64,000 bases of DNA. Origin: an uncultured Bacteroidia bacterium (lineage in GTDB: Bacteria; Bacteroidota; Bacteroidia; Bacteroidales; UBA932). Each line of letters begins with the position of its first letter. Within the stretch, counting starts at the first letter, position 1. The stretch is from NCBI GenBank assembly GCA_902796555.1, contig CADBPR010000030.1:20-64019 (forward strand), given 5' to 3'. The position numbers and the translations under genes were made by a program. The notes below the pieces were generated by a model. That model saw only the letters and a program-made list of their open reading frames with translations. It did not search any database and was not told the DNA's origin. This document shows, piece after piece, positions 6,995 to 38,031 of the stretch.

Positions 6995-6999
6995 AGCCG

Positions 7000-9306: not shown

Positions 9307-9331
9307 TGATTCTAAATCACAATATATTTCG

Positions 9332-9339
9332 CAAATATA
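9332..9339 (-). promoter_or_regulatory. -7 promoter box (TATATTTG) for the CNNM-BACON-M6-M6 operon
   Basis: TAnnTTTG match in the AT-rich divergent intergenic region. Confidence 0.6.
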
Positions 9340-9390
9340 GTTATAAATGTCGGATTTTTTTGTTAATTTCGCAAAAATTCCTTCTTATCC

Positions 9391-10260
9391 ATGACGACTC
9401 TCGGCATTGACCTCGGCGGCACCCAGATTCGCGCCGCGCGCATTCAACCGGACGGCCGCATTGACGGGCCGGTTCTCTCCTGCCCCACCCATGCAGACCG
9501 CCTCAGCGGCGAAGAACTGTACGGACGCATCCGTCAGCTGGCCCGTTCCGTGCGGGACGGCGGCGTGGCAGCCATCGGAATCGGCTCCACCGGTCCCATC
9601 GACATCGACCGCGGCATGACCCTGGACTGCAACAACCTGCCGTCCATGCAGTATTTTCCCATCTGCCGCCGTCTGCAGGAAGACCTCGGACTACGTGTGT
9701 TCCTGAACAATGATGCCAACGCCCTGATTCTGGGCGAAGCGGCCATCGGCGCCGCCAAAGGCTGTTCGCGCGTGCTGGGATTGACCCTGGGGACCGGTCT
9801 TGGCGCAGCCCTGGTGGTCGACCTGAAAGTCATCCGCGGCGCCAACGACAATGCCGGTGAAATCTGGACGGCCCCTTACGGCGACGGAATTATCGAAGAC
9901 ATCGTCTCCGGCCCCGGCATCCGGCGGATGTACCTCCAGGAGAGCGGAAAGGAGGCCGACGGCGCCGAAATCGCCCAACTGGCCCGCGAAGGAGACCCGG
10001 CTGCCGGCCGCGTCTGGGAACGTTTTGCCGATGCCCTTGGATTCGCGTTGAGCTGGACCGTCAACATGGTCGACCCTGAGATCGTGGTGCTGGGCGGTTC
10101 CGTGACCGAGTCCGCCGACCTGTTCCTCTCGCGCGCCGATGCTTTCATGCGGCGTTACATCTGCCAGTCTACCGCCGAAAAATTACGGGTCGTCCCGGCC
10201 ATGCTGGGGGCGAACGCCGGTGTCATCGGAGCGGGCATCGATGCCCATAAACGCCTGTGA
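9391..10260 (+). CDS. ROK family sugar kinase
   Basis: GIDLGGT, NNDANA, LGTGLG, VVLGGSV motifs; lacks the CxCGxxGCxE zinc motif. Confidence 0.9.
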   Translation: MTTLGIDLGGTQIRAARIQPDGRIDGPVLSCPTHADRLSGEELYGRIRQLARSVRDGGVAAIGIGSTGPIDIDRGMTLDCNNLPSMQYFPICRRLQEDLGLRVFLNNDANALILGEAAIGAAKGCSRVLGLTLGTGLGAALVVDLKVIRGANDNAGEIWTAPYGDGIIEDIVSGPGIRRMYLQESGKEADGAEIAQLAREGDPAAGRVWERFADALGFALSWTVNMVDPEIVVLGGSVTESADLFLSRADAFMRRYICQSTAEKLRVVPAMLGANAGVIGAGIDAHKRL

Positions 10261-11402
10261 TAAAGGTTATTCTGCTGATTGACTGCGCCAGCGAATTCGA
10301 CCGGAAGCTCCTGCGCGGGATTGTCCGTTATTCGAATGAAAACGGGCCCTGGCAGTTCTACCGTATGCCGTCCTGGTACCGCTGGGACGAGAACGGGGAG
10401 AAACATATCCTGGAATGGGCCGTCAAATGGAAGGCAGACGCCATTATCGGCCGCTGGAACAGCCGGAAGGCACCCCTGCTGAGCAAACTCGGCATCCCCA
10501 TCGTCCTGCAGAACTACCGCAGCCGCTCGACGGCCTATTCCACCCTGACCGGCGATTACATCGGGACCGGCCGGATGGCCGCCCGCTTCTTCATCCAGCG
10601 CCAGTTCACCCGTTTCGCCTTCTACGGCGTCCGGGGCATCGTCTGGTCCGAAGAACGCCTGCAGGGTTTCGCCCAGGAGGTGGAGCGTGCCGGCGGAAGC
10701 CTATCCACCCTGCTGATTGACGACCCGGAAAACGAGGTCCGCAAAGACGTCACCCGCTGGCTGCACAGCCTCCAGGGGCCGCTGGCCCTGTTCTGCTGCG
10801 ACGACGCCCACGCCCTGTTCATTTCCGAAATCTGCAAAATCGAAGGCATCCGCATCCCGGAAGACGTCGCCCTGCTGGGCGTGGACAACGACGACCTGTA
10901 CTGCGAGATTTCCGACCCGCCGATTTCTTCCATCGAACTGGATGTAGAACAGGGCGGCTACCAGACCTGCAGAATGTTGGACCGCTGCATCAGAGAGGGC
11001 AGCCACACGCCCTTCAGCGTGGTCATCCAGCCCCGGCAGATTGTCCAGCGCAAATCTACGGACCGGCACAATATCACCGACCCCCATGTCGGACGGCTGG
11101 TCAGTTATATCGAAGACCATTTCGCCGAGGATATCACGATGGATGATATTCTCGCGCAGGTGCCCATGTCCCGCCGCAGCATTGAACTGCGTTTCCGAAA
11201 GGCCCTGCATACCACCATCTACCAGTATCTGATTTCCTGCCGGATTGACTGTTTCACCCGCCTGCTGATTTCCACCGACCGTTCGCTGATGGATATCGCC
11301 ATGGCATCCGGCTTCCGGGACAGCAACAACCTCTCCCGGACCTTCCGCAAATTCCACGGCATGTCGCCCATGGAATACCGCGGGGCGCATTGCGGTATTT
11401 GA
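10257..11402 (+). CDS. XylR-type transcriptional regulator (LacI-like sugar-binding domain + AraC HTH)
   Basis: IPEDVALLGVDND..C..SDPPISSI sensor motif; C-terminal AraC double HTH (IAMASGF..SNNLSRTFRK..GMSP.EYR); GTG start overlaps the ROK stop. Confidence 0.9.
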   Translation: MIKVILLIDCASEFDRKLLRGIVRYSNENGPWQFYRMPSWYRWDENGEKHILEWAVKWKADAIIGRWNSRKAPLLSKLGIPIVLQNYRSRSTAYSTLTGDYIGTGRMAARFFIQRQFTRFAFYGVRGIVWSEERLQGFAQEVERAGGSLSTLLIDDPENEVRKDVTRWLHSLQGPLALFCCDDAHALFISEICKIEGIRIPEDVALLGVDNDDLYCEISDPPISSIELDVEQGGYQTCRMLDRCIREGSHTPFSVVIQPRQIVQRKSTDRHNITDPHVGRLVSYIEDHFAEDITMDDILAQVPMSRRSIELRFRKALHTTIYQYLISCRIDCFTRLLISTDRSLMDIAMASGFRDSNNLSRTFRKFHGMSPMEYRGAHCGI

Positions 11403-11421
11403 ATATATTTTTTCGATATTT
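11390..11421 (+). promoter_or_regulatory. Candidate AraC/XylR operator: 11-bp direct repeat at 21-bp period
   Basis: TTGCGGTATTT (11390-11400) and TTTCGATATTT (11411-11421), 9/11 identical, just upstream of the susC promoter. Confidence 0.5.
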
Positions 11422-11446
11422 CCGCAAAAAGATGGAACTTTTCCCG

Positions 11447-11454
11447 TATCTTTG
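11447..11454 (+). promoter_or_regulatory. -7 promoter box (TATCTTTG) of the PUL (susC) transcript
   Basis: Exact TAnnTTTG match 38 nt upstream of the susC ATG. Confidence 0.7.
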
Positions 11455-11491
11455 GGAAGAATATACATTGAACCACTAAAATTCTTTTCAC

Positions 11492-14400
11492 ATGGTACTT
11501 CAACAACAGGAACTTCACAGCAGGGGGCGCTCCTTCCTGGTCCTGCTGCTGTCCGTGTTGCTGCTGCTCCCCTCCTCCCTGTGGGCGCAGCAGACCGTCA
11601 AGGGTTCCGTCAAAGATGAGGACGGGAATCCCCTTCCGGGGGTCGGCGTCGTCGTCAGAGGAACCCGTACCGGTACGGTGACGGGAACGAACGGAACCTG
11701 GTCCCTGCGGATTCCCGAAGGGGGCCGCGAGTTGGAATTCTCCTGCCTGGGCATGAACACAGAAGTAGTGCCCATCGCCGGACGCAGTACGATTGACATC
11801 ACGATGAAAAACAACACCGACTATATCGACGAGGTGGTCATCGTGGGGTACGGCGCCCAGAAAAAGATTCACATGACCGGTTCCGTCGCCGCAGTATCCA
11901 ATGCCGAACTCAAAAAGGTCCCGGTCACGAATACCTCCCAGGCCCTGGTCGGCAAACTGCCGGGCCTGATTACCCAGCAGTCGCTCGGCCAGCCAGGTTC
12001 CGACCAGGTATCCATCCTCGTACGCGGGTATTCCTCTTATAATGATGCCGGTACGGTGCTGGTCCTGGTGGACGGCATCGAGCGCGACATGAACACCCTC
12101 AACCCCGGCGATATCGAAAGCATTTCAGTCCTGAAGGATGCGGCGTCCTGCTCCGTCTACGGTATGAAGGGCGCCAACGGCGTTATCCTCGTGACGACCA
12201 AACGGGGAGACGAAGGAACGGCGACGGTCAACTATTCCGGGCGTCTCATCCTCTCCACGCCGACCCGGCTGCCGCAGATGATGAACGGTGAACAGTATAT
12301 GAAATACTATAACCTCGGCTACCAGATGGACCAGATGTCCGGCGGCCTGGCCCAGGAAGACACCGTTCCTTTCTTCACGGCGGAAGACATCGCCAAGGTC
12401 AACAACGGAGACCTGTCCGACGGAATGGAAAACACCAGCTGGATAGACCCGATGCTCCGGACGACCCTCACCCACCAGCACAACCTGTCGGTGTCGGGCG
12501 GGTCCTCCAAGGTGAACTATTACATCAGCGGGGCCTTCCAACGCCAGAACGGCTTCCTGGACGACCACTACAACCAGCGCACCAATGTGCGTTCCAATGT
12601 AGACGCCCGTCCTACGAAGAACCTGAAAATCAGCCTCAACCTCGGATTTATGGTGCAGGACTACAACCAGCCCGGCGTCATGTCGTTCGCCAACGGCCAG
12701 CTGGGCGGTACGGTTCCGTTCTGTCTGATGTACGCCCTGCCTTTCGTACCGCAGACCTATGAAATGGACGTCGCGCCCGAATACAAGGGCATGCCTACTT
12801 CCGGTATGCGGACCAGCGGTGCTTTCGTGGCGAATGCGGTCTACGGCGCCGCCAACAGCGGCTATGCCAAAACCCGTACGCTCAAAATCGAGACGGCGGC
12901 GAGGGCCGAGTACTCCTTCCCCTTCCTCAAAGGTCTGAAGGCGGCCTTCAACTACAGCTGGGACTACCGGGACATCGATTCCAAGTCTTTCGCCTATGCC
13001 TACAAGGTCATGGCCTGGAACTTTATGGCGAAGACCTTCGACCCGGAGCCCTGGATGTGCTCCAACGCCCTGGAAACCGGCAACCTGGCCATGGGTTACC
13101 AGCGGTTCTACCAAACGATTCTCCGGCCGGAAATCTCCTACAGCGGCACCTTCGGCCGCCACGAGGTGTCCGCCCTGTTGCTGTATGAACAGAACACCCT
13201 CCGCAGCAAGAAACTGGACGGAAGCGGCATGAAGTTCGGCTTCTTCGACATCGTGGAAATCAGCCAGGCCGACCCTACCACCCTGAAATCGTCCAGTTCG
13301 TCCGGAATCAGCGCCTATGCCGGTTACGTGGGCCGTATCAATTATGCCTACGCTGACAAGTACCTGGTCGAGGTGGCGGCCCGTTACGACGGTTCTTATA
13401 AATTTGCAAAAGAGCACCGCTGGGGGTTCTTCCCCTCCATTTCTGCAGGCTGGGTCGTGTCCAACGAGGATTTCTTCAAGGACAACGTCTCCGCCATCAA
13501 CCTGCTGAAACTCCGCGGTTCACTCGGTGAAGTCGGTAACGACAATGTCGACCCCTGGCTGTACCGGAAGAGCTATGCCAGCAACCAGAATGCGGTCGCT
13601 TTCGGGCAGACAGCCCAGTCCAGCCTGTACAACACCGTTTCCTACCCGCGTTACGACCTGACCTGGGAACGGGTCCGGACCTATGACGTCGGTATGGAAC
13701 TCTCCGTCTGGAAAGGTCTCCTGAGCCTGGAATTCGACTGGTTCTACAAATACACCTACGATATTCTGAACAGTCTGGGCGCGGCCTATCCGGGTTCCCT
13801 GGGCGGCCATTACCCGACCAACCAGAACGACGGTAAGTTCGACAACCGCGGCTTCGAACTGTCCCTGCGGCACGAAAACCGCATCGGGGATGTCTATTAC
13901 CGGCTTGCCGGGAACATCTCTTGGGCCCGCAACCGCATCCTCAAAAAGACGGAAGCCGACAATGTCCTGCCTTGGCAGAGTACCATCGGCACGTCCATCG
14001 GGTCCATCTGGGGCTACAAGTCCGACGGCCTGTACCAAACCCAGGAAGACCTGGACAATGCCCCGCAGGGCGTGGACGTCCAGCTCGGCGACATCAAATA
14101 CGTGGACATCAACGGTGACGGCAAACTGGACGGGGACGACATGATTCAGATTGCCCGCAACATCCGGCCGGAACTCATGTTCGCCTTCCAGGCAGACCTG
14201 AGCTGGAAGGGGCTGGATGTCAACCTCCAGTTCCAGGGCGGCGCCCTGTGCGACAAGATGCTCCTCGGGAAATGGGCCAACGGCGTGACCGACGCCAACC
14301 CCCTCACCCGTCCTTTCTATGCCGGCTATGACAACGCGCCCCTCTACCTGGTGGAAAACAGCTGGCGGCCGGACAATCCGAACGCGGAGTATCCCCGCCT

Positions 14401-14680
14401 CTCCGTCAACGGCGGTTCCTATGCCAACAACTACCGCGTCTCCGATTTCTGGATGCGCGACGGGGCCTATCTCCGTCTGAAGAACGCCAGCCTGGGCTAT
14501 ACCCTGCCCGCCAAATGGACCCGGCGCATCAACATCCAGAACATCCGCCTTTCCGTCACAGGCAGCAACCTGCTGACATTCACCCAGTTCAAGTATCTTG
14601 ACCCGGAAAGTCCGAACGCCGTCACCGGTTACTACCCGCAGCAGCGTACCGTCACCTTCGGGCTGGACATCACCTTCTAA
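11492..14680 (+). CDS. susC: SusC/RagA TonB-dependent outer membrane transporter
   Basis: CarboxypepD-like N-domain, EVVIVGYG, DIESISVLKDAAS..YG..GANGVILVTTKRG plug, YLRLKN, C-terminal YP.QRT..FGLDITF. Confidence 0.97.
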   Translation: MVLQQQELHSRGRSFLVLLLSVLLLLPSSLWAQQTVKGSVKDEDGNPLPGVGVVVRGTRTGTVTGTNGTWSLRIPEGGRELEFSCLGMNTEVVPIAGRSTIDITMKNNTDYIDEVVIVGYGAQKKIHMTGSVAAVSNAELKKVPVTNTSQALVGKLPGLITQQSLGQPGSDQVSILVRGYSSYNDAGTVLVLVDGIERDMNTLNPGDIESISVLKDAASCSVYGMKGANGVILVTTKRGDEGTATVNYSGRLILSTPTRLPQMMNGEQYMKYYNLGYQMDQMSGGLAQEDTVPFFTAEDIAKVNNGDLSDGMENTSWIDPMLRTTLTHQHNLSVSGGSSKVNYYISGAFQRQNGFLDDHYNQRTNVRSNVDARPTKNLKISLNLGFMVQDYNQPGVMSFANGQLGGTVPFCLMYALPFVPQTYEMDVAPEYKGMPTSGMRTSGAFVANAVYGAANSGYAKTRTLKIETAARAEYSFPFLKGLKAAFNYSWDYRDIDSKSFAYAYKVMAWNFMAKTFDPEPWMCSNALETGNLAMGYQRFYQTILRPEISYSGTFGRHEVSALLLYEQNTLRSKKLDGSGMKFGFFDIVEISQADPTTLKSSSSSGISAYAGYVGRINYAYADKYLVEVAARYDGSYKFAKEHRWGFFPSISAGWVVSNEDFFKDNVSAINLLKLRGSLGEVGNDNVDPWLYRKSYASNQNAVAFGQTAQSSLYNTVSYPRYDLTWERVRTYDVGMELSVWKGLLSLEFDWFYKYTYDILNSLGAAYPGSLGGHYPTNQNDGKFDNRGFELSLRHENRIGDVYYRLAGNISWARNRILKKTEADNVLPWQSTIGTSIGSIWGYKSDGLYQTQEDLDNAPQGVDVQLGDIKYVDINGDGKLDGDDMIQIARNIRPELMFAFQADLSWKGLDVNLQFQGGALCDKMLLGKWANGVTDANPLTRPFYAGYDNAPLYLVENSWRPDNPNAEYPRLSVNGGSYANNYRVSDFWMRDGAYLRLKNASLGYTLPAKWTRRINIQNIRLSVTGSNLLTFTQFKYLDPESPNAVTGYYPQQRTVTFGLDITF

Positions 14681-14685
14681 TCCCC

Positions 14686-16386
14686 ATGGTCATGAAAGCA
14701 AGAAAACTTATCTATACGACAGCCGTCCTGCTGTGCGCTGCCGCCTGCCAGGACCCGCTGGAACTGGATCCGACCGGCTGGCACAGCGAATCGGTGGTCT
14801 ATGACTCGCCGGAACACATGGACCTCTATGTCAAGAGCCTCTATGCCGTCCTGTATGCCAACGCCGACATCACCGCCGGTTATATCTTCGACGACTGCAT
14901 CTCCGACCTGGTGAAGGAATCCTGGTACGGAACCGGCGGCGGCACGGTGAACAAGTTCTTCTATCAGAGCGACATCATCACGCCGGAAAGCAATTTCCGC
15001 TCCAACTGGGGCATGTACACCTACATCCGCCAGATCAACGAATTCTTCTTCGACAACCACTACGGCTATATCAAGGGCATCGACCCGGAGGTCCTGAAAG
15101 TCCGCCTGGCCGAAGCGCGTTTCCTGCGGGCCTTCGCCTACCAGGAACTGGTCCTGCGGCACGGCGGGGTTATCCTGCGGACGCGGGAGGACCACGTAGA
15201 CGGTCCCGAAGACAAGGCGAAAGCCCGTTCTTCGGCTTCGGACTGCTGGGATTTCATCATCTCCGAGTATGAGAAAGCGGCGGCCGACCTGCCCCTGAGC
15301 TGGGCCGGCACCGACTACGGCCGGATTACCAAGGGTGCCGCCATCGGTATGAAAGCCCGCGCCAACCTCTATGCCAAACGCTGGCAGAAAGCGGTCGACG
15401 CCTGCGACGAACTGTTTGAACTCGGTCAGTATGAACTGCTTCCGGGCAGCACCTACGCCGACTACTACAAGATTTTCACCTCTTTCCAGAACAAGGAGCT
15501 GATTCTGCCGGTCCTGTTCCAGCAGAGCACGGGCGGAGCCACGGGCAAACAGCACAACTTCAACTCCTATTTCTGCCCGCCCGGTGACGGAGCGCCTTTC
15601 AATGTCGCTGTCGGCGCCGCCGCTACCCCGACGGAGGAATATGCCTCCCGCTTCGACATCAAGGTCGGCGATACCTGGGAGACCTTCGACTGGGACCACC
15701 TCGCCACCTACGGCAACAAACCTTTCGACAACCGCGACCCGCGTTTCTATGCCTCCATCCTCTACAACGGAGCCTCCTGGAAGAGCCGGACGTTGGAAAT
15801 CTATGAAGAAGGAGCCGACGGGTTCATGCCCTACAAGAGCGAAGGACAGGACAACCAGCACAAATCCACGACCGGTTATCTGTTCCGCAAATTCATCAGC
15901 GACGATGCCGCGATGAACTTTACGTCCATCCTCAGCGGACAGTACTGGATTGAAATGCGCCTGGCGGAGATTTACCTGATTCGCTCCGAGGCCTATGCCC
16001 GCCTGGGCAAATGGAAGGAAGCCTATACCGACCTGAACGCCGTCCGCGGACGGGCCGGGCTGAACGAAGCGCCGCAAAAGGGCGACTGGGACGCCTACCA
16101 GAAAGACTTGGACAAGGAACGCGTCTGCGAACTCGGACTGGAGGGGCACCGCTTCTTCGACCTGATCCGCTGGGACAAAGCCCAGGAAGTGCTGGACGGC
16201 AAACGGCTGCACGGGGTCAAAGCCACCCCTGTGTCGGGCGGATTCACCTATGAGGTGATTGAGTGCGACCCGCAGGACCGGCATTTCCCTGCCAAGTACA
16301 ATATCTGGCCCATTCCTTATTCTGAAATGACCACCAACAAGCTATGCGAACAGAACGCAGCCTGGGGCGGGACCTGGACCGATTAA
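14686..16386 (+). CDS. susD: SusD/RagB glycan-binding lipoprotein
   Basis: Lipobox AAAC; EARFLRAF.Y, GRITKGAA, RDPRF, RLAEIYL..SEA, ER..ELGLEGHRFFDLIRW. Start may be 14692. Confidence 0.96.
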   Translation: MVMKARKLIYTTAVLLCAAACQDPLELDPTGWHSESVVYDSPEHMDLYVKSLYAVLYANADITAGYIFDDCISDLVKESWYGTGGGTVNKFFYQSDIITPESNFRSNWGMYTYIRQINEFFFDNHYGYIKGIDPEVLKVRLAEARFLRAFAYQELVLRHGGVILRTREDHVDGPEDKAKARSSASDCWDFIISEYEKAAADLPLSWAGTDYGRITKGAAIGMKARANLYAKRWQKAVDACDELFELGQYELLPGSTYADYYKIFTSFQNKELILPVLFQQSTGGATGKQHNFNSYFCPPGDGAPFNVAVGAAATPTEEYASRFDIKVGDTWETFDWDHLATYGNKPFDNRDPRFYASILYNGASWKSRTLEIYEEGADGFMPYKSEGQDNQHKSTTGYLFRKFISDDAAMNFTSILSGQYWIEMRLAEIYLIRSEAYARLGKWKEAYTDLNAVRGRAGLNEAPQKGDWDAYQKDLDKERVCELGLEGHRFFDLIRWDKAQEVLDGKRLHGVKATPVSGGFTYEVIECDPQDRHFPAKYNIWPIPYSEMTTNKLCEQNAAWGGTWTD

Positions 16387-16402
16387 CCGACGTATGCAAG
16401 GT

Positions 16403-18262: not shown

Positions 18263-18274
18263 TGATTTAGAAAT

Positions 18275-20266: not shown

Positions 20267-20272
20267 TGCACT

Positions 20273-20304
20273 TTGCGGCGGCATCCTGACCGGTGCCGCC
20301 GTAA
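20273..20304 (+). other. Intra-operon stem-loop without U-tract (mRNA stabilizer/attenuator candidate)
   Basis: TTGCGGCGGCATC-CTGACC-GGTGCCGCCGTAA, a 13-bp stem with 2 G-U pairs, at the junction of transport/binding genes and enzyme genes. Confidence 0.55.
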
Positions 20305-20320
20305 CCAAATACCCTTTTCC

Positions 20321-30994: not shown

Positions 30995-32217
30995 AATCAT
31001 TCCTCCTCTTCCTATTGACGGCTTTGCTGATGGCCGGATGCGGAAAGGCCCGGCCCAAAGAGATTCCCCAGTGGAACATGAACGAGCCTTCTGCCGAACC
31101 CGAACCGTCCGAAAGCCCGTCGGCCGACGCTTCTGCCGACCCTTCCCAGGATGCGCCGAACGGACGGACCGAGATTCCCGACTATACCGACATGGTTCTG
31201 ATGTATGGTTACAGCCACCACCGGAAGCCCTATGAATGGACCCGCGACATCATGAAAGACTATGTCCTGTACCAGGACCCGGACGGCCAATGGCACTGGC
31301 TTTTCGACGCTTTCCTCTGCCTGGAATTCATGTCGGTGGACGGGCCGAACGGCAATAAGACCTTCGTCTCCGGCTACAAGCACAACGGCAGCTACCTCGA
31401 ATCGGCCGCCAAGGACGACTGGGAAGGCCTGCTGGATTATTACTGCCAGGCCAATACCGGCATCGGCGCCATCGACGCCGCCGTCGCACAAGGGGCCAAG
31501 TCCCTGGGCGAACCGGAGCGCAAACGGCAGATTATCATCTGTATACCGGAACCGATTCCCTATCGATTCAACAACTACGGACAGGACCAGACCGGCGGCA
31601 CCACCTATTGGGGCGCCCTGGACGGGGAGCAACTGGACTTTTCCAAAACCGCCGACCGGCTGAAGGCGCTCAAATGGTACGTCGATACGGCCATCCGGAA
31701 ATTCGAGAAGCGGAAGTATGCCCATGTCGAACTGGGCGGTTTCTATATCACGGCGGAACGGGCCACCTTCATAACCGATATCCTCAAGCAGCTGGGCGAC
31801 TATGTCACCGGGATGAAGTATTCTTTCAACTGGATTCCCTACTTCAAGGCGGACGGGTTCCACACCTGGAAAAGTTTCGGTTTCTCCCACGCCTTCATGC
31901 AGCCCAACTATTTCTTCTCCGAGGATATCGGAAAAGACAGATTGGTGGACGCCTGCCAGACTGTACTCAAATACGGGATGGGCATGGAAATCGAATTCGA
32001 CGGAAAGGCCATGCAGTCCACCGGCTGGGGATACCGCCTGCGGGATTATATGAAATATGCACAGGACTACGGTGTCTGGGAGCAGTGCCGGCTGGCCTAT
32101 TACCAGGGCAGCTGGGCCGTCCGCTGGCTGAAAGATTCCGCCGTAGCCGAAGACCGCCAGCTCTATGACGATTTCTGCCAATTCGTCATCAGCCGGCCCA
32201 TCCGAGATACCCATTGA
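30991..32217 (+). CDS. DUF4855 family lipoprotein (GH-like barrel)
   Basis: Lipobox MAGC; DMVLMYG, WLFDAFL, LGGFY, WIPYF.A.G...WK.FGF..A.MQPNYFF, GMEIEFD. Confidence 0.85.
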   Translation: MKSFLLFLLTALLMAGCGKARPKEIPQWNMNEPSAEPEPSESPSADASADPSQDAPNGRTEIPDYTDMVLMYGYSHHRKPYEWTRDIMKDYVLYQDPDGQWHWLFDAFLCLEFMSVDGPNGNKTFVSGYKHNGSYLESAAKDDWEGLLDYYCQANTGIGAIDAAVAQGAKSLGEPERKRQIIICIPEPIPYRFNNYGQDQTGGTTYWGALDGEQLDFSKTADRLKALKWYVDTAIRKFEKRKYAHVELGGFYITAERATFITDILKQLGDYVTGMKYSFNWIPYFKADGFHTWKSFGFSHAFMQPNYFFSEDIGKDRLVDACQTVLKYGMGMEIEFDGKAMQSTGWGYRLRDYMKYAQDYGVWEQCRLAYYQGSWAVRWLKDSAVAEDRQLYDDFCQFVISRPIRDTH

Positions 32218-32222
32218 CGCTT

Positions 32223-33221
32223 ATGAAAAAATTCGCTCTCACAGCCTTGTCGCTGATTCTCTGCCTGAGCGCCGCCGCCCAAAACGTCCGGCGCATCGGC
32301 ATCATCGGCCTGGATACGTCCCATTCCACGGCCTTCACCGAACTCCTGAACGGAGACGGGGATGACCCTTTTGTCCGGTCTTTTGAAGTCGTGGCCGCCT
32401 ATCCGTACGGTTCCCGCACGATTCCTTCCAGCTACAACCGGATCGCCGGATACACGGAAGAGGTCAAAAAGCACGGCGTCGTCATCTGCGACTCCATCGA
32501 CCAGCTGCTGGAAATGGTTGATTTCGTGATGATTGAGACCAATGACGGACGGCTCCATCTGGAACAGGCCGAAGCGGTATTCCGCAGCGGAAAGGTCTGC
32601 TACATCGACAAGCCCGTCGGCGCCACCCTGGGGGAAGCGCTGGCCATCTATCAGCGGGCGGACCATTACGGAATTCCGATTTTTTCCTCCTCGGCCCTGC
32701 GCTTTTCCCCGGACAATGTCAAACTGCGTGAAGGCGCTTTCGGTCCCGTTCTCGGTGCCGACTGCTATTCACCGCACAAGACGGAACCGACCCATCCCGA
32801 CTTCGGATTCTACGGGATTCACGGCGTTGAAACGCTCTATACCCTGATGGGGACCGGCTGCGTGACCGTATCCCGCCTCGGAACCGCGATGGGTGACGTC
32901 GTCACCGGAACCTGGGCAGACGGCCGGATCGGGACCTTCCGGGCCATCGTAGAAGGGCCGGCCATCTATGGCGGTACGGCTTATACGGCCCAAGGGGCTG
33001 TTCCCGCCGGAGGCTATGCCGGATACAAGGTCCTGCTCGACCAGATTCTCACCTTCTTCGAAACCGGCGTGCCGCCCGTCAGCCGGGAGGAAACCCTGGA
33101 AATCTATGCCTTCATGAAGGCCTCCAACATGAGCAAAGCCCAAGGACGGCCGGTGACGATTGCCGAGGCTATGAAGGCCGGGAAGAAAGAAGCGGCCAAA
33201 CTGCTGAAAGCCTACCGATGA
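32223..33221 (+). CDS. Gfo/Idh/MocA oxidoreductase with Sec signal peptide
   Basis: MKKF..AAA signal; IGIIGLDTSH, YIDKP, SSSALRF, YGIHGVE. Confidence 0.85.
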   Translation: MKKFALTALSLILCLSAAAQNVRRIGIIGLDTSHSTAFTELLNGDGDDPFVRSFEVVAAYPYGSRTIPSSYNRIAGYTEEVKKHGVVICDSIDQLLEMVDFVMIETNDGRLHLEQAEAVFRSGKVCYIDKPVGATLGEALAIYQRADHYGIPIFSSSALRFSPDNVKLREGAFGPVLGADCYSPHKTEPTHPDFGFYGIHGVETLYTLMGTGCVTVSRLGTAMGDVVTGTWADGRIGTFRAIVEGPAIYGGTAYTAQGAVPAGGYAGYKVLLDQILTFFETGVPPVSREETLEIYAFMKASNMSKAQGRPVTIAEAMKAGKKEAAKLLKAYR

Positions 33222-34363
33222 ACGCGCGACTGACCCTTCTGCTGATGGCCATGACGGCTTTTGCCTGCACCCCCGCGCCCATTCGGCTCAGCGTACTGGA
33301 GCCGGGGCATTTCCATGCTTCGCTGGTCCAGAAATACGCCCTGGAAGGCGTGGATTCCACCGTCCGTGTCTATGCGGAAGACGGACCGGAGTTGCAGCAG
33401 TATCTGACGGCCATCGATGCCTTCAACCACCGGCAGGAGCAGCCGACCCATTGGCGGGAAGAGGTCCATATCGGTGATGCTGCGGCCCTGCTTCCCCCGG
33501 CCAAGGGACGGGAAGCCGTCATCCTGGCCGGAAACAACCGCCACAAGACCCGCCTGCTGCACCGGGCGGTATCGCAGGGATATAACGTACTGGCAGACAA
33601 ACCTTTGGCAATAACGCCCGAAGACTTGGACCTGCTGGAAGACGCCTACCGGACCGCTACGGAAAAAGGGCTGGTCATTCAGGAACTGATGACCGAGCGG
33701 ACCGTCGCCGGCAACCGGGCCCTGCAGGACTGGTATACAGCGCATCCCATCCCCTGCGGCAGCCCGGAGGAACCGGCCGTGCAAATGCGCAGCGTCCATC
33801 ATTTTTTCAAGCAGGTGGACGGAAATCCCCTGACCCGGCCGGTCTGGTATTATGACATCCGTTGCCAGGGCGAGGGCATCGCCGATGTCACCACCCATTA
33901 TATCGACATGATTTTCACCCAATGTTTTCCCGGGGAGACCCTGCAGGCGTCGGACATCCTTGTGGTGGAGGCCCGCCACTGGCCGACCCGCATTACGCGG
34001 GAGCAGTTCCGGCAGTCCACGGGAGCGGAAGATTTCCCGGCCGACCTGGTCCCCTACCTCCGGGACGGCGTTCTGGAAGTCATGGCCAACGGCAGCATGC
34101 TGCTCTGCATCAAGGGCGTTTATGCCCGGATTGAAGTAATCTGGGACTATGAAGGGACAGATTCCTTCACGGCGGATTATGCCGGTTTTTCCGGCAGCTT
34201 GCCGGCTGATACGCTCAGCCACGAAGACCATTTCCGGCTGGTGATGGAAGATTTTTTGGAATATGTAGAAGGGGCCCGGACCCAGCCTGCCCGCGAGCGG
34301 GTCAATACCCTGACCAAATACCGTATCATCGGCGAGGCCGTCCGACAAGCAGGTGGAGCGTGA
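33218..34363 (+). CDS. Gfo/Idh/MocA-related oxidoreductase lipoprotein (Oxidoreduct_C-type)
   Basis: Lipobox AFAC; PGHFHASLVQK, LAGNN..K, VLADKPLAI, MTER, SVHHFFK, QGEGIADVTTH. Confidence 0.75.
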   Translation: MNARLTLLLMAMTAFACTPAPIRLSVLEPGHFHASLVQKYALEGVDSTVRVYAEDGPELQQYLTAIDAFNHRQEQPTHWREEVHIGDAAALLPPAKGREAVILAGNNRHKTRLLHRAVSQGYNVLADKPLAITPEDLDLLEDAYRTATEKGLVIQELMTERTVAGNRALQDWYTAHPIPCGSPEEPAVQMRSVHHFFKQVDGNPLTRPVWYYDIRCQGEGIADVTTHYIDMIFTQCFPGETLQASDILVVEARHWPTRITREQFRQSTGAEDFPADLVPYLRDGVLEVMANGSMLLCIKGVYARIEVIWDYEGTDSFTADYAGFSGSLPADTLSHEDHFRLVMEDFLEYVEGARTQPARERVNTLTKYRIIGEAVRQAGGA

Positions 34364-35141
34364 ATCGACATATCTGACTGAGCAACAGGTCTTTCATGGC
34401 TGGATACCGCGCGTCATGGGGACCCGTTTCGACCTGCTGGTCTGTGCGGTGGGCGCACGAGCGGCGCAGGTGTTGTGGAGCAATATTTGCAACACCCTGG
34501 AACAGATGGACCGGATGTTGGACCGCTTCAACCCGGTCAGCGAAGTGGCGCGGCTCAATACGGGACGCATCCGCAGCCTGAGTGCTGAACTGCAGGAAGT
34601 GCTGGATATCTGCGCCGGCTATTGGCTGCGCACCGGCGGGCTGTTCGACATCACCCGCAAGGACTTCACCCGGCTGCACTGGCAGGTCGGGACGTTGGAT
34701 ACCGGCGGTGTGGACATGGACTTCGGCGGAATCGCCAAAGGGCTGGCGCTCAGGCAGATACAAGACATGCTGGAACGATGGGGCATCACCTCGGCCTTCG
34801 TGGATTTCGGAGGCAGTTCCATTCTGGCGGTGGGCCGGCACCCCTACGGTCCCTGCTGGAAGGTAAGCCTGCAGAACCCCTATACCGGGGAAAACCTGGC
34901 CGAAGTGCCGCTCCTGGACTGTTCCCTGTCCACATCGGGCAACCGGCCGGAATACAGTGGCCATATCATCCGGCCGGCGGATGGACAGCCATGTGAAGAA
35001 CGGCGGCTGGTGACCGTTACGGCGCCGGACCCGCTGGATGCGGAAGTCCTCAGCACCGCCCTTATGCTGGCGACGCCCCGGCAGCGGACCGCATTGAAAG
35101 AACAGTTTCCGCGCGCGGAAACACAGATATATGACGTATGA
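34353..35141 (+). CDS. apbE: ApbE-family FAD:protein FMN transferase (short, no signal peptide)
   Basis: MGT, SEVARLN, T.G.FDIT, DFGGIAKG, DFGGSS, STSG, HII.P..G, AEVLSTA. Confidence 0.85.
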   Translation: MERESTYLTEQQVFHGWIPRVMGTRFDLLVCAVGARAAQVLWSNICNTLEQMDRMLDRFNPVSEVARLNTGRIRSLSAELQEVLDICAGYWLRTGGLFDITRKDFTRLHWQVGTLDTGGVDMDFGGIAKGLALRQIQDMLERWGITSAFVDFGGSSILAVGRHPYGPCWKVSLQNPYTGENLAEVPLLDCSLSTSGNRPEYSGHIIRPADGQPCEERRLVTVTAPDPLDAEVLSTALMLATPRQRTALKEQFPRAETQIYDV

Positions 35142-36448
35142 GTAAGGAAGTTGACCTCGGACTGCGCCGGTTCCTGAAGAACCTGGGGCTGATGACCGGC
35201 GGTGCCGCCATTCTGACGACGGCCCCCTGGCTCCAGTCCTGTTCCCGCACGGCTGAGGAAAAAGAAAAGGAAACGGCCCGGCTGGCCCTGATTGGCTGCG
35301 GTTCGCGCGGACAGTACCACTTGGTGATGCTGCGCGGGATTTCCTGCGCCCGGGTCGTCGCGCTATGCGACGACTGGCAGCCCAACTTGGATGCCGCCCA
35401 TGCCATGGTGCCGACGGCCCGTACCTATACCGATTACCGGAAACTCCTGGAGGACCCGGACATCGACGGCGTCATCATCGCGACGCCCCTGGGGTTGCAT
35501 GCCCGTATGACCCTGGACGCCATGGCTGCCGGCAAGCATGTTTTCTGCGAGAAGGCCATGGCCTTGACCCTGGAAGAATGCAAGCAGGTCTATGAGGCGT
35601 ATCGCCGGGGGGACCGGGTCCTGTTTTACTGTATGCAGCGCATGTATGACGAGAAATACATCCAGGGTATCCGGCTCATTCGGGAAGGGCTCATCGGCGA
35701 TGTGGTCGGCATGCGCTGCCACTGGTTCCGGAACGCTGACTGGCGCCGGGAAGTGCCCTCCCCCGAACTGGAGCGACGGATCAACTGGCGTCTGTACAAG
35801 GAGTTCTCGGCCGGACTGATGACCGAGCTGGCCTGCCACCAGTTGGAAGTATGCAATTGGGCGGCGGACCGCATTCCTACCGAAATCATCGGCCTGGGAG
35901 ATATCGTCTATTGGAAGGACGGGCGGGAAGTCTACGACAGCGTCAATGTGACCTATCGCTATGCAGACGGGCGGAAAATCTGCTATGAATCGCTGATTTC
36001 CAACAAGTTCAACGGGATGGAAGACCAGATTCTCGGCAAGGACGGCACGATGGACCTCACCCGGGGCGTCTTCTATCTGGAGGAGGACCATCTGAATTCA
36101 GGCATGAAACAGTTGCTCGAACAAATCAAAACGAAGACGTTCGCCGCGATTCCGGCGGCCGGGCCTTCCTGGCGGCCGGAGTTGCGCTCCGCCTATACCC
36201 CGCATCCCATTCTGGAAGGCGCCGTCAGCGTCAATGCCGGCCAAAGCATGGTCGCGGCGGACAACGACGGCTCCGATATCATCCTGGAGGCTTTCTGCCG
36301 GTCCTGTCTCAACGGACAACGGGCGGAAAACGTCGTGGAGGAAGCCTACAGCGCCACCGTGCTCTGCCTGCTGGGCAACTTGGCCATGGAGGAGCAGCGG
36401 CTCATCACCTTCCCGGAGGAATACAAAATCCCATACATGAAATTCTGA
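35138..36448 (+). CDS. Tat-exported (lipo)protein Gfo/Idh/MocA oxidoreductase
   Basis: LRRFLK twin-arginine motif plus LQSC lipobox; IGCGSRG Rossmann motif, IATP..H, HVFCEKAMA, NWRLY..FSAGLMTELACHQ. Confidence 0.9.
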   Translation: MSKEVDLGLRRFLKNLGLMTGGAAILTTAPWLQSCSRTAEEKEKETARLALIGCGSRGQYHLVMLRGISCARVVALCDDWQPNLDAAHAMVPTARTYTDYRKLLEDPDIDGVIIATPLGLHARMTLDAMAAGKHVFCEKAMALTLEECKQVYEAYRRGDRVLFYCMQRMYDEKYIQGIRLIREGLIGDVVGMRCHWFRNADWRREVPSPELERRINWRLYKEFSAGLMTELACHQLEVCNWAADRIPTEIIGLGDIVYWKDGREVYDSVNVTYRYADGRKICYESLISNKFNGMEDQILGKDGTMDLTRGVFYLEEDHLNSGMKQLLEQIKTKTFAAIPAAGPSWRPELRSAYTPHPILEGAVSVNAGQSMVAADNDGSDIILEAFCRSCLNGQRAENVVEEAYSATVLCLLGNLAMEEQRLITFPEEYKIPYMKF

Positions 36449-36452
36449 TGCC

Positions 36453-36701
36453 ATGAAAGACCTTGTCATCCCCGCCAAAACCCTCCGACGGGAGTTGTGG
36501 ATACTCCTGGGCTGCCTGGGGGCCGCCATCCTGGTCAATGTCGGCGCCATCATCGCCTATGACAGGCCCTGGAAAGAATTGTTCACCCAAATCGGCTATA
36601 CCCTGACCGTAACCATATTGTTATATCTGGTCCTGCTCCTGGGAAGAGGACTTGTAGCAGGACTCATCCATATCATCCGAAAAATAAATCGACATGACTA
36701 G
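36453..36701 (+). CDS. Small two-TM membrane protein
   Basis: 82 aa, two hydrophobic helices around AYDRPWKELFTQ; tightly packed between two oxidoreductase genes. Confidence 0.75.
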   Translation: MKDLVIPAKTLRRELWILLGCLGAAILVNVGAIIAYDRPWKELFTQIGYTLTVTILLYLVLLLGRGLVAGLIHIIRKINRHD

Positions 36702-38031
36702 CAGACGTAACTTCCTGAAGACCGCCCTCGCCGGCGGAGCCGCACTGACCCTGGACGGCATGATGCCCCGGAGCGCCGCGGCCGCAATGCAACCCTCCCC
36801 GGCCCCCAGCGACCGCATCCGCGTCGGCGTCATCGGGGTCAATTCTCGCGGATTCGCCCTGGCGACCGGTTTTGCCAAAATGCCCGGATGCCGGGTAACG
36901 GCCTTGTGTGACTGCGACCTGCAGGCCCTGGAGCGGGCCCGCGTCCAGGTACGGAGCCTGACAGGGAAGAATCCCGACACTTTCCAGGATATACGGGAAT
37001 TCCTGGAATACAAAGAGATGGACGCAGTGGTCATCGCCATGCCCGATCATTGGCACGCCAAGGCCGCCATCATGGCGATGGAAGCCGGCAAACATGTCTA
37101 CCTGGAAAAACCGACCAGTTACTGTCCCGCTGAAAACGAGGCGTTGATGGCAGCCGCCCGCCGCACGGGCAAGGTCATTACCGCCGGCAACCAGCGCCGT
37201 TCCTGGCCGAATATTATCGCCGCCATCCAGGAGATCCGGGAAGGCAGCATCGGACGGGTCCGCTATGCCAAGACCTGGTACAGCGCCAACCGGCCGTCCA
37301 TCGGCCGCGGCAAGCCCGCGCCGGTGCCGGCCCACCTGGACTGGGACCTGTGGCAGGGACCGGCTCCGCGTACGGAATTCCATGACAACTATATCCATTA
37401 CAACTGGCATTGGTTCTACCGCTGGGGAACCGGAGAAGCCCTCAACAACGGGACCCATTTCGTCGATATCCTGCGCTGGGGACTGGACGTGGAATACCCG
37501 ACCCTCGTAACCTCCGTGGGCGGACGTTTCCGCTACGATGACGACTGGGAATTCCCTGACACGCAGATGATTACCTTCCAGTTCGGAGACAAGGCCTCCG
37601 GCTGGTGGGAGGGCCGCAGCTGTAACAGTACTCCCAGTGACGGGGCCGGACTGGGCGTCGCTTTCTACGGAGAGAACGGTGCGCTGTTCCTCAACGGCGG
37701 GGACGAGTACAAGATCGTCGACATGAAGGGCGGCGTCATCAAAGAGGTCAAGAGCGAATACCCTTTCGAGCCGGCCAATGTCATCAACCCGTGTGAGAAG
37801 CTGGACACCTTCCATTTCCGGAACTGGTTCGATGCCATCCGAACGGGGGCCCGGCTGAATTCCGACATCCGGAATGCCTGTATCAGCACCCAGCTGGTCC
37901 AGCTCGGCAATATTGCCCAGCGGGTCGGCCGGTCGCTGCGGATCAATCCCGAGAACGGACACATTCTGGACGACGCCGAGGCGATGCGTTATTACAGTCG
38001 CCACTACGAGCCCGGCTGGGAGGTTGAATAA
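36694..38031 (+). CDS. Tat-exported Gfo/Idh/MocA oxidoreductase
   Basis: MTSRRNFLK Tat motif; GVIGVNSRG, PDHWH, HVYLEKP, GNQRRS, LDWDLWQGPAP, HYNWHW, NNGTHFVD. Confidence 0.92.
   Translation: MTSRRNFLKTALAGGAALTLDGMMPRSAAAAMQPSPAPSDRIRVGVIGVNSRGFALATGFAKMPGCRVTALCDCDLQALERARVQVRSLTGKNPDTFQDIREFLEYKEMDAVVIAMPDHWHAKAAIMAMEAGKHVYLEKPTSYCPAENEALMAAARRTGKVITAGNQRRSWPNIIAAIQEIREGSIGRVRYAKTWYSANRPSIGRGKPAPVPAHLDWDLWQGPAPRTEFHDNYIHYNWHWFYRWGTGEALNNGTHFVDILRWGLDVEYPTLVTSVGGRFRYDDDWEFPDTQMITFQFGDKASGWWEGRSCNSTPSDGAGLGVAFYGENGALFLNGGDEYKIVDMKGGVIKEVKSEYPFEPANVINPCEKLDTFHFRNWFDAIRTGARLNSDIRNACISTQLVQLGNIAQRVGRSLRINPENGHILDDAEAMRYYSRHYEPGWEVE

Follow-up and report, generated by a model that had tools for sequence, protein, structure and literature searches.

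The question raised by this locus is which glycan is harvested by a set of genes that joins amino-sugar enzymes and a phosphodiester glycosidase family member to a group of exported oxidoreductases. It was examined in a window of 64,000 nucleotides (the whole stretch of DNA analysed) and is a genuine, tightly packed SusC/SusD polysaccharide utilisation locus (PUL) of a ruminant gut Bacteroidales bacterium. The ORF map and Pfam/NCBIfam scans place all locus genes (9391-38031) on the + strand, with 17 genes in a row from susC up to the final oxidoreductase gene (11492-38031) and a ROK kinase and regulator preceding them at 9391-11402. The source organism is ruminant-associated. The features are as follows.

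9327, 9367, 11343 and 11420: TTYCGCAAA repeats, candidate operator (read from sequence)
9391-10260, +: ROK-family sugar kinase without HTH domain, cytoplasmic (PF00480, 157 bits)
10257-11402, +: XylR-like hybrid regulator, sugar-binding Peripla_BP_3 plus AraC HTH (PF13377, 111 bits; PF12833, 69 bits)
11447-11454, +: Bacteroidetes-type -7 box TATCTTTG, candidate promoter element ahead of susC (read from sequence)
11492-14680, +: SusC-like TonB-dependent transporter (CarboxypepD_reg and Plug domains)
14686-16386, +: SusD-like lipoprotein (PF07980, 176 bits)
16394-18262, +: DUF5018 surface lipoprotein (PF16410)
18275-20266, +: another surface lipoprotein, which shares its C-terminal head domain with the DUF5018 protein (BLASTP)
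20273(20321)-21337, +: two-SIS-domain GlmS-isomerase-like protein, cytoplasmic (PF01380 twice)
21334-24036, +: GH2, exo-beta-D-glucosaminidase (CsxA)-like, predicted periplasmic (Ig_GlcNase domain, 68 bits)
24003-25514, +: GH20 beta-N-acetylhexosaminidase lipoprotein (PF00728, 354 bits)
25507-27642, +: 711-aa secreted protein with clan GH-D-like architecture (AF2 model)
27618-29609, +: DUF6259 secreted protein (PF19773, 287 bits)
29606-30994, +: NAGPA-family phosphodiester glycosidase lipoprotein (PF09992, 88 bits)
30991-32217, +: DUF4855 lipoprotein, (beta/alpha)8 glycosidase-like barrel (PF16147, 299 bits)
32214-33221, +: degenerate Gfo/Idh/MocA-like protein, Sec-exported (PF01408, 25.8 bits)
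33218-34363, +: lipoprotein with Oxidoreduct_C domain (PF16490, 201 bits)
34353-35141, +: compact ApbE-family protein (PF02424, 134 bits), without signal peptide as read from its N-terminus
35138-36448, +: Gfo/Idh/MocA oxidoreductase with Tat motif and lipobox (PF01408, 82 bits; RRF...LQSC N-terminus)
36453-36701, +: conserved 82-aa protein, two membrane helices predicted (ORF with two hydrophobic segments)
36694-38031, +: Tat-exported Gfo/Idh/MocA oxidoreductase, GFO445 (TAT_signal and GFO domains)

An earlier note on this DNA had described the genes from 20321 to 38031 as overlapping or at most 5 nt apart, which is so provided that the 82-aa ORF is counted; junctions from the SIS gene onward then range from -34 to +4 nt. 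It had also seen no terminator between susC and 38031, and + strand terminator-like matches in this stretch are indeed weak, lie within coding sequence and do not exceed those in shuffled sequences (13 against 18.0 expected and 9 against 9.8 expected). The sole well-placed hairpin with a T-run, at 11373-11400, separates the regulator gene from susC, so the kinase and regulator genes, which overlap by 4 nt, probably form a transcription unit of their own. TTYCGCAAA occurs 5 times against 1.45 expected, a count reached by 0 of 100 shuffles. The proposal of a single conserved unit under its own regulator stands: in four of five other carriers the regulator occupies the equivalent place and is 53-76% identical. 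RNA-library contigs of cattle gut origin span the operon.

The combination of genes, previously taken to be unusual, proved to be widespread: synteny is common to ~25-35 species of gut and rumen Bacteroidales, and the locus is a member of a conserved, never characterised gut PUL family, with no characterised syntenic PUL in the literature searched, as had been supposed. SusC shares 49-55% identity with its counterparts in syntenic loci, the Bacteroides short variant among them. These short variants add GH89, GH3 and SGNH esterases to the same SusCD pair and DUF4855, and they too have a NAGPA gene. Related locus L040, which is distant, adjoins a gene for a YkfC-like NlpC/P60 murein-peptide peptidase.

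At the surface, the DUF5018 lipoprotein is probably a glycan-binding protein, and it is 73% identical by BLASTP to the second lipoprotein over the C-terminal 384 aa. The latter has no match in the Pfam scan; DUF4623/DUF5018-type clusters in the Atlas provide a lead.

The amino-sugar enzyme set read from the sequence earlier was upheld, comprising GH20, a CsxA-like GH2 and the ROK and SIS pair here, with MFS-NagA-NagB found in 17-21 of 35 relatives. The GH2 had been assigned to the mannosidase/glucosaminidase branch; the glucosaminidase side of this assignment holds, with CsxA structures matched at 239 bits over residues 21-892, whereas beta-mannosidases reach only 113-117 bits and that identity was rejected. 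The SIS protein matches the C-terminal half of glmS (113 bits), NagB-II (58 bits) and GlmD (51 bits), all below the NCBIfam cut-offs, with the MurQ model not among the matches in that scan, and is probably an amino-sugar-6-phosphate deaminase/isomerase. The ROK kinase scores below every NCBIfam equivalog cut-off. Together, the two proteins fit with GlcN catabolism.

Fold models support a GH-like nature for two of the three unassigned proteins noted previously, the 711-aa protein and DUF4855; the third is DUF6259. The 711-aa protein gave no Pfam, NCBIfam or PDB sequence match, but its AF2 model (pLDDT 80) best matches GH36/GH27/GH31 structures (Z ~14 over 400-450 residues), which makes it a candidate new family of GH36/GH27/GH31-like alpha-glycosidases. 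It has 1716 clusters in the representative library, and natural fusions with GH20 exist. DUF6259 has no PDB sequence match and is possibly glycosidase-like; its neighbours in the Atlas include a 'putative alpha-galactosidase', a lead only. The AF2 model of DUF4855 (pLDDT 83.5) is a TIM barrel of general glycosidase type, with PgaB GH153 (Z 15.6), BT_0435 (Z 15.4), Cwp19 (Z 15.2) and GH5/GH18 (Z 14-15) effectively tied among many TIM-barrel families at Z 13-15.6.

The NAGPA gene was confirmed as a genuine family member with its motif intact and with DUF4855 as its recurrent partner. The protein matches vertebrate NAGPA structures (E 1e-10), carries at residues 428-432 the DGGGS motif, which 21 of 21 orthologues retain, and keeps a conserved Arg ~23 residues downstream. 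DGGGS has been described as an invariant motif that binds the sugar phosphate (PMC13474241). The N-acetyl-recognising residues of human NAGPA have no reliable alignment to the bacterial protein, and in the literature searched the animal enzyme is the only family member with a demonstrated substrate. In 20 of 54 loci, DUF4855 has a NAGPA domain no more than 10 kb away; in the minimal variants (L018, L019 and L022), which consist only of SusCD, a DUF5018-like protein, NAGPA and DUF4855, these two are the sole enzymes. The 2.1-Mb genome itself has seven NAGPA and four DUF4855 genes, among them a second DUF4855-NAGPA-MFS-ROK module (contig C100) and a SusCD-DUF4855-DUF6259 module (contig C56). This recurrent pairing, the minimal variant and the copy numbers support a target containing both amino sugars and glycosyl-phosphate bridges.

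Downstream, the four exported oxidoreductase-like proteins of the earlier note have the N-termini expected of exported proteins (one Sec, one lipoprotein, one Tat plus lipobox and one Tat). The degenerate Gfo-like protein (65-87% identity across relatives) is fused with the following Oxidoreduct_C gene in relatives L009 and L017, and the Oxidoreduct_C lipoprotein matches a PDB 'hypothetical protein' (4oo3, 257 bits). The Gfo/Idh/MocA protein with the lipobox is 66-90% identical across relatives, and tblastn matches to the 82-aa ORF occupy the identical position in 17 syntenic loci. GFO445 appears distantly related to glycoside 3-dehydrogenases: it scores 153 bits against BT_2158_fam, for which the cut-off is 750, and its best solved relatives are 8tdf (92 bits) and 8tdh (85 bits), with GH109 structures at 33-39 bits. 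The flavinylation target motif [ST]GA[ST] was found in no PUL protein.

Taken together, we consider it about an even chance that the PUL serves to obtain a glycan in which N-acetylhexosamine and free hexosamine abound and which carries sugar-1-phosphate diester bridges. The bacterial cell-wall origin put forward earlier gained no support from the locus; in a gut, wall or capsular glycopolymers of other bacteria would be the most likely source, but this is the weakest link in the proposal. In the scheme, drawn throughout from family membership, the polymer would be bound by SusD and the two twin-headed lipoproteins, and the defining cuts would be made by the adjacent lipoproteins NAGPA, cleaving the glycosidic C1-O-P bond of a terminal alpha-HexNAc-1-phosphate diester, and DUF4855, acting as a glycosidase on a neighbouring linkage. 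Fragments imported through SusC would lose beta-HexNAc to GH20, beta-GlcN to the CsxA-like GH2 and alpha-linked residues to the 711-aa GH36/31-like protein and DUF6259 in the periplasm. The ROK kinase and SIS protein would convert hexosamine to fructose-6-phosphate in the cytoplasm, a task that MFS-NagA-NagB may perform for GlcNAc in most relatives, and the Peripla_BP_3/AraC regulator would detect a degradation product in the cytoplasm. The Tat/Sec-exported Gfo/Idh/MocA cassette, with ApbE and the small membrane protein, most likely oxidises sugars or glycosides using tightly bound NAD(P), as in the proposal for BT2158, and may handle a linkage or sugar beyond the hydrolases.

This reading is favoured by the gene content and close packing, the conserved synteny and regulator, the NAGPA-DUF4855 pairing, MFS-NagA-NagB in relatives, the NAGPA DGGGS motif and Arg, the CsxA-like GH2, the ROK and SIS pair, the GH20/711-aa fusions, the Bacteroides short variants, the YkfC-like neighbour of L040 and the cattle-gut RNA contigs. 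It is weakened by the absence of NAGPA from L003-L011 and other full-length relatives (about one-third of the full-length set), by the generic DUF4855 fold match, and by a cassette lacking DUF1080 and IolE-like partners and a recognisable flavinylation target. The study cited for the B. thetaiotaomicron relative reportedly used mice colonised with that species alone; if so, foreign cell walls cannot be the sole inducer of that relative. The Pfam scan of the locus revealed neither a phosphatase nor a glycerophosphodiester phosphodiesterase; a phosphate-bridged polymer would apparently require such an enzyme, and this counts against such a target.

That missing phosphatase fits a very unlikely alternative in which NAGPA does not act on phosphodiesters in this locus, the target being a HexNAc/HexN exopolysaccharide without phosphate, for example partly deacetylated PNAG or a Pel/galactosaminogalactan-like polymer. 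PgaB GH153 is the top, though effectively tied, structural neighbour of DUF4855, the GH36-type fold includes galactosaminidases and relatives have SGNH esterases; the strict conservation of the described sugar-phosphate recognition loop and the expansion of NAGPA genes in this genome speak against it. There is a slim chance that chitin/chitosan-type beta-GlcNAc/GlcN chains of rumen fungi, ciliates or dietary yeast, possibly with phosphoglycan decorations, are the target. A ruminant-associated organism with a CsxA-like exo-beta-glucosaminidase, GH20, GlcN catabolism and a DUF4855 barrel resembling GH18 and GH153 among others would suit such chains, but no endo-chitinase or chitosanase family is recognisable, the accessory GH2, SIS and ROK genes are absent from most relatives, and plain chitosan would leave NAGPA and the alpha-glycosidase-like proteins without a role.

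A host glycan has a small but real chance: alpha-GlcNAc-capped mucin O-glycans, heparan/heparosan-type chains or, on N-glycans of shed lysosomal enzymes, GlcNAc-1-P-6-Man, the substrate of animal NAGPA. The window locus lacks any sialidase, fucosidase, beta-galactosidase, alpha-mannosidase, endo-beta-GlcNAcase, sulfatase or lyase, its GH2 is not a beta-mannosidase, and gastric mucin alpha-GlcNAc caps are not cleaved by BT0438. In its favour, carriers are all gut or rumen Bacteroidales, and the Bacteroides variant couples DUF4855 with the NAGLU homologue GH89. BT0438 shows activation on both keratan sulfate and colonic mucin O-glycans, and the SusC protein BT_0439 was detected following growth on GOS and on human milk oligosaccharides. 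It is also rather unlikely that the redox cassette merely shares the operon while serving a separate function outside glycan depolymerisation, such as periplasmic oxidation of free sugars or polyols. The cassette is missing from L029-L033, where the glycosidase block is kept, and has neither a lyase/hydratase partner nor a flavinylation target, yet its first gene and that of DUF4855 overlap by 4 nt, it stays with the PUL in ~20 species at 62-90% identity, and a GFO445-like gene accompanies DUF4855 in L040 too.

Several known systems resemble parts of this locus. BT2158 is a Tat-exported Gfo/Idh/MocA dehydrogenase, probably with bound NAD(P) cofactor (PMC8121099). The BT2156-BT2160 3-keto-glycoside pathway of B. 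thetaiotaomicron and the present cassette have such a dehydrogenase in common, but the latter lacks the DUF1080 hydrolase and IolE-like protein and adds Oxidoreduct_C, ApbE and the 82-aa membrane protein. Vertebrate NAGPA, the mannose-6-phosphate uncovering enzyme (PDB 6pku and related entries), shares PF09992, NGG(Y/F)F, RTA(V/I)G and DGGGS with the locus protein, with alignment limited to residues ~214-255 and 332-440 (35-44 bits), whereas the latter is a lipoprotein, has a long extension at its N-terminus and lacks the EGF stalk and propeptide. CsxA (PDB 2vzs and related entries) aligns over the full length of the locus GH2, Ig_GlcNase included, but the C-terminal extension of its 1032-aa chain is missing here, and the locus enzyme is set in a PUL rather than a chitosanase system. 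A related layout is seen in BT0438-BT0443 of B. thetaiotaomicron and in the corresponding loci of B. finegoldii, B. faecis and B. xylanisolvens (SusC and SusD 53-58% identical in Bacteroides relatives), where SusCD is followed by a DUF5018-type lipoprotein and a DUF4855 protein 39% identical to that of the locus (BT0442 is annotated DUF4855), with a NAGPA-family gene and SGNH esterases nearby; GH89 and GH3 replace GH20, the 711-aa protein, DUF6259 and GH2, and the redox cassette is absent. The chitin utilisation locus of Flavobacterium johnsoniae, which consists of SusCD, GH18 and GH20, likewise pairs SusCD with GH20 for a HexNAc polymer, and its ChiB structure (6xyz) is a fold neighbour of DUF4855; the present locus has no GH18 by sequence and adds NAGPA, the alpha-glycosidase-like proteins and the redox cassette.

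Nineteen genes, all on the forward strand, were identified within 9391-38031 of the window by an ORF map combined with Pfam and NCBIfam scans. The window comes from contig C30 of a source assembly of 2.13 Mb that is 83% complete. The features are ordered as follows.

Features of the locus, 5' to 3' (window coordinates)
Start of locus, 5' of susC, +: ROK kinase, then Peripla_BP_3/AraC regulator
11373-11400, +: terminator-like hairpin; regulator and SusC are 89 nt apart
11447-11454, +: candidate -7 box TATCTTTG, read in the sequence upstream of SusC
11492-14680, +: SusC, with Plug and CarboxypepD_reg domains
14686-16386, +: SusD lipoprotein (SusD_RagB, 176 bits), 5 nt from susC
16394-20266, +: two lipoproteins 3' of SusD, their C-terminal 384 residues 73% identical
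3' of the twin lipoproteins, +: protein with two SIS domains
21334-24036, +: GH2
24003-25514, +: GH20
25507-27642, +: 711-aa protein
27618-29609, +: DUF6259 protein
29606-30994, +: NAGPA protein
30991-32217, +: DUF4855 protein
32214-38031, +: redox block of six genes, namely Ox335 (weakly GFO-like, 32214-33221), Oxidoreduct_C, ApbE, GFO436 (35138-36448), an 82-aa two-helix membrane ORF, and the Tat protein GFO445 (36694-38031)

From the SIS gene through the last gene, junctions measure -34 to +4 nt, and the terminator-like sites within the string are weak, lie inside coding sequence and are not commoner than in shuffles, in agreement with the tight gene string that the earlier note had described. 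The locus has the adjacent susC-like and susD-like genes of a SusC/SusD-type PUL, together with GH2, GH20, NAGPA, three GH-like proteins and a regulator, conserved as a unit. Judged by their N-termini, SusD, both twin lipoproteins, GH20, NAGPA, DUF4855, Oxidoreduct_C and GFO436 are predicted lipoproteins; GH2, the 711-aa protein, DUF6259 and Ox335 carry Sec signals; GFO436 and GFO445 have Tat motifs; and ROK, SIS, the regulator and ApbE show no signal. The four exported oxidoreductases of the earlier note are matched to export signals (Sec for Ox335, lipoprotein for Oxidoreduct_C, Tat plus lipobox for GFO436 and Tat for GFO445). An EIPQWNM peptide is common to NAGPA (29669-29689) and DUF4855 (31060-31080) just past the lipidated Cys, with Pro/Glu/Ser-rich linkers next to it; peptide and linker may serve both proteins as a common tether or for sorting.

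Several features were noted at the borders and in the lipoproteins. The window holds five copies of the motif TTYCGCAAA against 1.45 expected, a count reached by none of the shuffles; since four of the five (9327-9335, 9367-9375, 11343-11351, and 11420-11428) fall in the PUL's two promoter regions, the Peripla_BP_3/AraC regulator may use the motif as its operator. In the twin lipoproteins, the shared C-terminal domain sits atop unrelated N-terminal stalks, and the Atlas points to clusters of the DUF4623/DUF5018 type. Within 38031-38322, a GC-rich hairpin lies immediately 3' of the last stop codon, a direct repeat of ~31 nt occupies 38045-38075 and 38268-38299, and the contigs of one sheep gut DNA run break off at 38073-38083. 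This pattern points to a repeated element, or else a variable junction, where the PUL ends. Upstream, on the reverse strand (3390-8232), two M6 (immune inhibitor A-like) peptidase genes and a BACON-domain protein are found, for which no link to the PUL was established.

To collect relatives, one genome per species was scanned with the DUF4855 profile, yielding 80 loci, all with Bacteroidales-type content, from which synteny was derived by a tblastn matrix and HMM scans. The order SusCD, DUF5018, second lipoprotein, GH20, 711-aa protein, DUF6259, (NAGPA), DUF4855 and redox block is conserved in ~25 species from Alistipes, Cryptobacteroides, Rikenellaceae, Muribaculaceae and uncultured rumen, chicken, and human gut Bacteroidales, with the closest locus (71-90% amino-acid identity) in a roe-deer rumen MAG. 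The locus is a conserved PUL family and is not unique to the window genome. GH2, SIS and ROK are accessory across the relatives, and the regulator is kept 13-20 kb upstream in four of the five carriers tested. MFS-NagA-NagB stands between DUF4855 and the redox block in 17-21 of 35 relatives; it is missing from that place in the window, and the NagA and NagB genes of the same genome are on contig C14. In 300 genomes sampled evenly across the order, no further complete copy of the PUL turned up, only one 36%-identical homologue in another context and 19 distant paralogues, and the 711-aa gene is absent from two complete genomes of the same genus; the distribution is patchy, in a sample that does not establish absence. 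Near-identical DNA was found in sheep, goat, cattle and rumen metagenomes from 13 studies. The operon is also covered by contigs of three RNA libraries, as would be expected if it is expressed, though these are contigs only, open to DNA carry-over, and no proof of one transcript. Six loci (L003-L008), in records titled Oscillibacter, Treponemataceae, Firmicutes or Lachnospiraceae, carry a SusCD PUL with proteins ~30-68% identical to those of the window; these bins are probably mislabelled or contaminated.

The NAGPA protein matches PF09992 with 87.7 bits (cut-off 25) and aligns with the vertebrate uncovering-enzyme structures in the core only, where NGGYFY, RTAVG, and DGGGS are retained. Its NFDGGGST aligns with NLDGGGSA of 6pku, the catalytic Asp corresponding to human D286, and DGGGS is conserved at ≥90% in 21 orthologues. 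This loop is invariant and recognises the sugar-phosphate, its Asp being essential, according to a 2026 structural study (PMC13474241). A conserved Arg ~23 residues past the DGGGS Asp is a candidate counterpart of the phosphate-binding R316 of the human enzyme; the phmmer alignment ends before it. The region of the N-acetyl-recognising human residues E226/T227 falls in a gapped alignment, with the Glu kept and the Thr replaced by Ile. By sequence, the protein is a PF09992 family member with an intact DGGGS motif, and hydrolysis of HexNAc-alpha-1-phosphate diesters is predicted.

Among the 54 loci of at least 15 kb, 20 have a NAGPA domain within 10 kb of DUF4855, mostly directly upstream, and in three relatives (L018, L019, and L022) the entire PUL consists of SusC, SusD, a DUF5018-like protein, NAGPA and DUF4855, followed by carAB. 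The window's own genome has seven NAGPA genes (contigs C99, C58, C20, C19, C33, C100, and C30) and four DUF4855 genes (C96, C56, C100, and C30), a striking expansion in 2.1 Mb; the C100 module reads DUF4855-BACON-NAGPA(fn3)-MFS-ROK and the C56 module SusCD-BT_3987N-DUF4855-DUF6259. It is above all the repeated occurrence of this pair that argues for a central, not an incidental, role of sugar-1-phosphate chemistry.

For the hydrolases, GH2 aligns over its full length (residues 21-892) with the exo-beta-D-glucosaminidase CsxA at 239 bits and carries an Ig_GlcNase domain (PF18368, 68 bits), which places it by sequence in the CsxA branch, closest to exo-beta-D-glucosaminidase; at 113-117 bits, the beta-mannosidases fall well short of the CsxA score, and a beta-mannosidase/N-glycan reading was rejected on these scores. 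GH20 has a profile match for its catalytic domain (PF00728, 354 bits; PF02838, 36 bits). By NCBIfam models, the SIS protein is similar to the isomerase half of GlmS and less so to the NagB-II and GlmD deaminases, and alongside the ROK kinase this fits catabolism of free glucosamine; a MurQ-type etherase was dropped, as no such model is among the matches.

The AF2 model of DUF4855 (pLDDT 83.5) is a (beta/alpha)8 barrel whose structural neighbours, PgaB GH153 (Z 15.6), BT_0435 (15.4), Cwp19 (15.2) and GH5/GH18 chains (Z 14-15), are effectively tied, so that only "glycosidase-like barrel" is a safe description of the model. The 711-aa protein, like distant members of its family, has no sequence match in Pfam, NCBIfam or the PDB. 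Its model (pLDDT 80) comprises a beta-sandwich, a (beta/alpha)8 barrel and a C-terminal beta-sandwich and best matches GH36, GH27 and GH31 (Z 13-14.4 over 400-450 aligned residues; Foldseek E 4e-12), with GH13 chains close behind in score; as modelled, it has the architecture of clan GH-D (GH27/GH31/GH36). The strand with the candidate YFDGAED motif adjoins a low-confidence stretch of the model. The family lacks a Pfam model, numbers 1716 clusters in a library of 1.8 billion proteins, and is fused elsewhere to GH20 and to GH28+GDSL. Profile-profile comparison gave DUF6259 no significant relation to the 711-aa family (14% probability) or to DUF4855 (6%), and its Atlas neighbours are clusters of the same family plus one labelled "putative alpha-galactosidase." The earlier description of all three as unassigned GH-like proteins is backed by fold models for two of them, DUF4855 and the 711-aa protein.

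No part of the locus is better conserved than the redox block (62-90% identity), whose 82-aa membrane ORF is kept in 17 loci. Two Cryptobacteroides relatives (L009:14314-16548 and L017:4979-7117) have Ox335 and Oxidoreduct_C joined in a single ORF of 712-744 aa, an indication that both work as one unit. The best solved relatives of GFO445 are 8tdf (92 bits) and 8tdh (85 bits), both deposited simply as dehydrogenases. Against the NCBIfam BT_2158_fam model (glycoside 3-dehydrogenase; cut-off 750), GFO445 scores 153 bits and GFO436 78 bits, neither reaching equivalog level. The GH109 structures 6t2b and 2ixa match the Tat proteins at 33-48 bits, no better than many dehydrogenases and below the 92 and 85 bits above, so a GH109 assignment is unsupported by sequence; a redox-neutral glycosidase mechanism is possible for these proteins. 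ApbE has a family match of 134 bits and no signal peptide, and no [ST]GA[ST] flavinylation motif is found in any protein of the PUL. Our best guess for the block is NAD-dependent oxidation of sugars or glycosides, substituting for or complementing a hydrolytic step. Five relatives (L029-L033) have GH2 and lack the block, and most block-bearing loci lack GH2; the window and L002 carry both.

Gene content, the NAGPA-DUF4855 pairing and the catabolic modules together point to a target glycan built of amino sugars, with HexNAc/HexN in alpha and beta linkage and with glycosyl-phosphate bridges, a proposal to which we give roughly even chances. An origin of this polymer in the walls or capsules of other bacteria, as the earlier note supposed, is plausible because O-acyl esterases occur in relatives, because a murein-peptide peptidase lies beside one distant relative (L040), and because wall and capsular polymers are abundant in guts. 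That peptidase, a YkfC-like NlpC/P60 protein with SH3b domains of murein-peptide hydrolase type, is encoded at L040:19552-20739 in Anaerorudis cellulosivorans, just 3' of a distant PUL with DUF4855 and a GFO445-like gene. Against a bacterial origin stand the lack of any encoded phosphatase or phosphodiesterase in the locus and the dispensability of NAGPA, and host glycans, fungal walls, and phosphate-free exopolysaccharides are live alternatives. Head groups of plant GIPC or GPI anchors (alpha-GlcN-inositol-phosphate), raised by the inositol-dehydrogenase-like proteins, misfit GH20 and the beta-glucosaminidase and were set aside.

The locus family might be the first uptake system dedicated to polymers with glycosyl-phosphate bridges, such as teichoic-acid-type or capsular glycans of other bacteria. 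It would then hold three undescribed GH families (DUF4855, DUF6259, and the 711-aa protein) and a new periplasmic NAD/flavin redox module in place of a hydrolytic step, possibly that of the CsxA-like GH2, given that block and GH2 tend to alternate across relatives; we regard this whole as tentative and less likely than not. The locus is in any case a real, conserved, uncharacterised PUL family with several candidate new enzyme families, and computation cannot settle its substrate. Little is known of how gut Bacteroidales recycle phosphorylated host glycans or the polymers that make up the walls and capsules of neighbouring bacteria. The family can be approached through a bacterial NAGPA homologue whose active-site loop is intact, through two or three candidate new glycosidase families (one without a Pfam model and with ~1700 sequence clusters) and through an exported redox cassette that is strongly conserved. 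Carriers are available in culture (Parabacteroides bouchesdurhonensis and Alistipes species, with the short form in Bacteroides finegoldii and B. faecis), so the substrate question is directly testable.

In the literature searched, no paper gives a substrate to any member of the family, and no PUL is described for a phosphodiester-linked glycan; searches for DUF4855 (one incidental mention), DUF6259, phosphodiester glycosidase, and exo-beta-D-glucosaminidase gave no characterised PUL, and teichoic acid with phosphodiester gave one review. No characterised syntenic PUL emerged there, in line with the earlier note, which did not recognise the combination as a characterised PUL. The closest described redox system is that of BT2158, a Tat-exported protein with tightly bound NAD(P) proposed to oxidise disaccharides in the periplasm alongside a DUF1080 hydrolase (PMC8121099). 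Unlike this BT2156-BT2160 3-keto-glycoside pathway, which has the DUF1080 hydrolase and an IolE-like partner (PMC8121099), the window locus has neither domain among its 19 gene products in domain scans. Both B. finegoldii and B. faecis have a SusCD pair of the window's type (53-58% identity), behind which come DUF5018, DUF4855, GH89, GH3 and an SGNH esterase, with a second esterase and a NAGPA gene divergently downstream. The DUF4855 protein of B. thetaiotaomicron, BT0442, adjoins a GH89 enzyme (BT0438) and SusCD (BT0439/0440), and BT0438, termed an orphan gene, cleaved pNP-alpha-GlcNAc only and not gastric mucin caps (bioRxiv 2026.03.26.714468).
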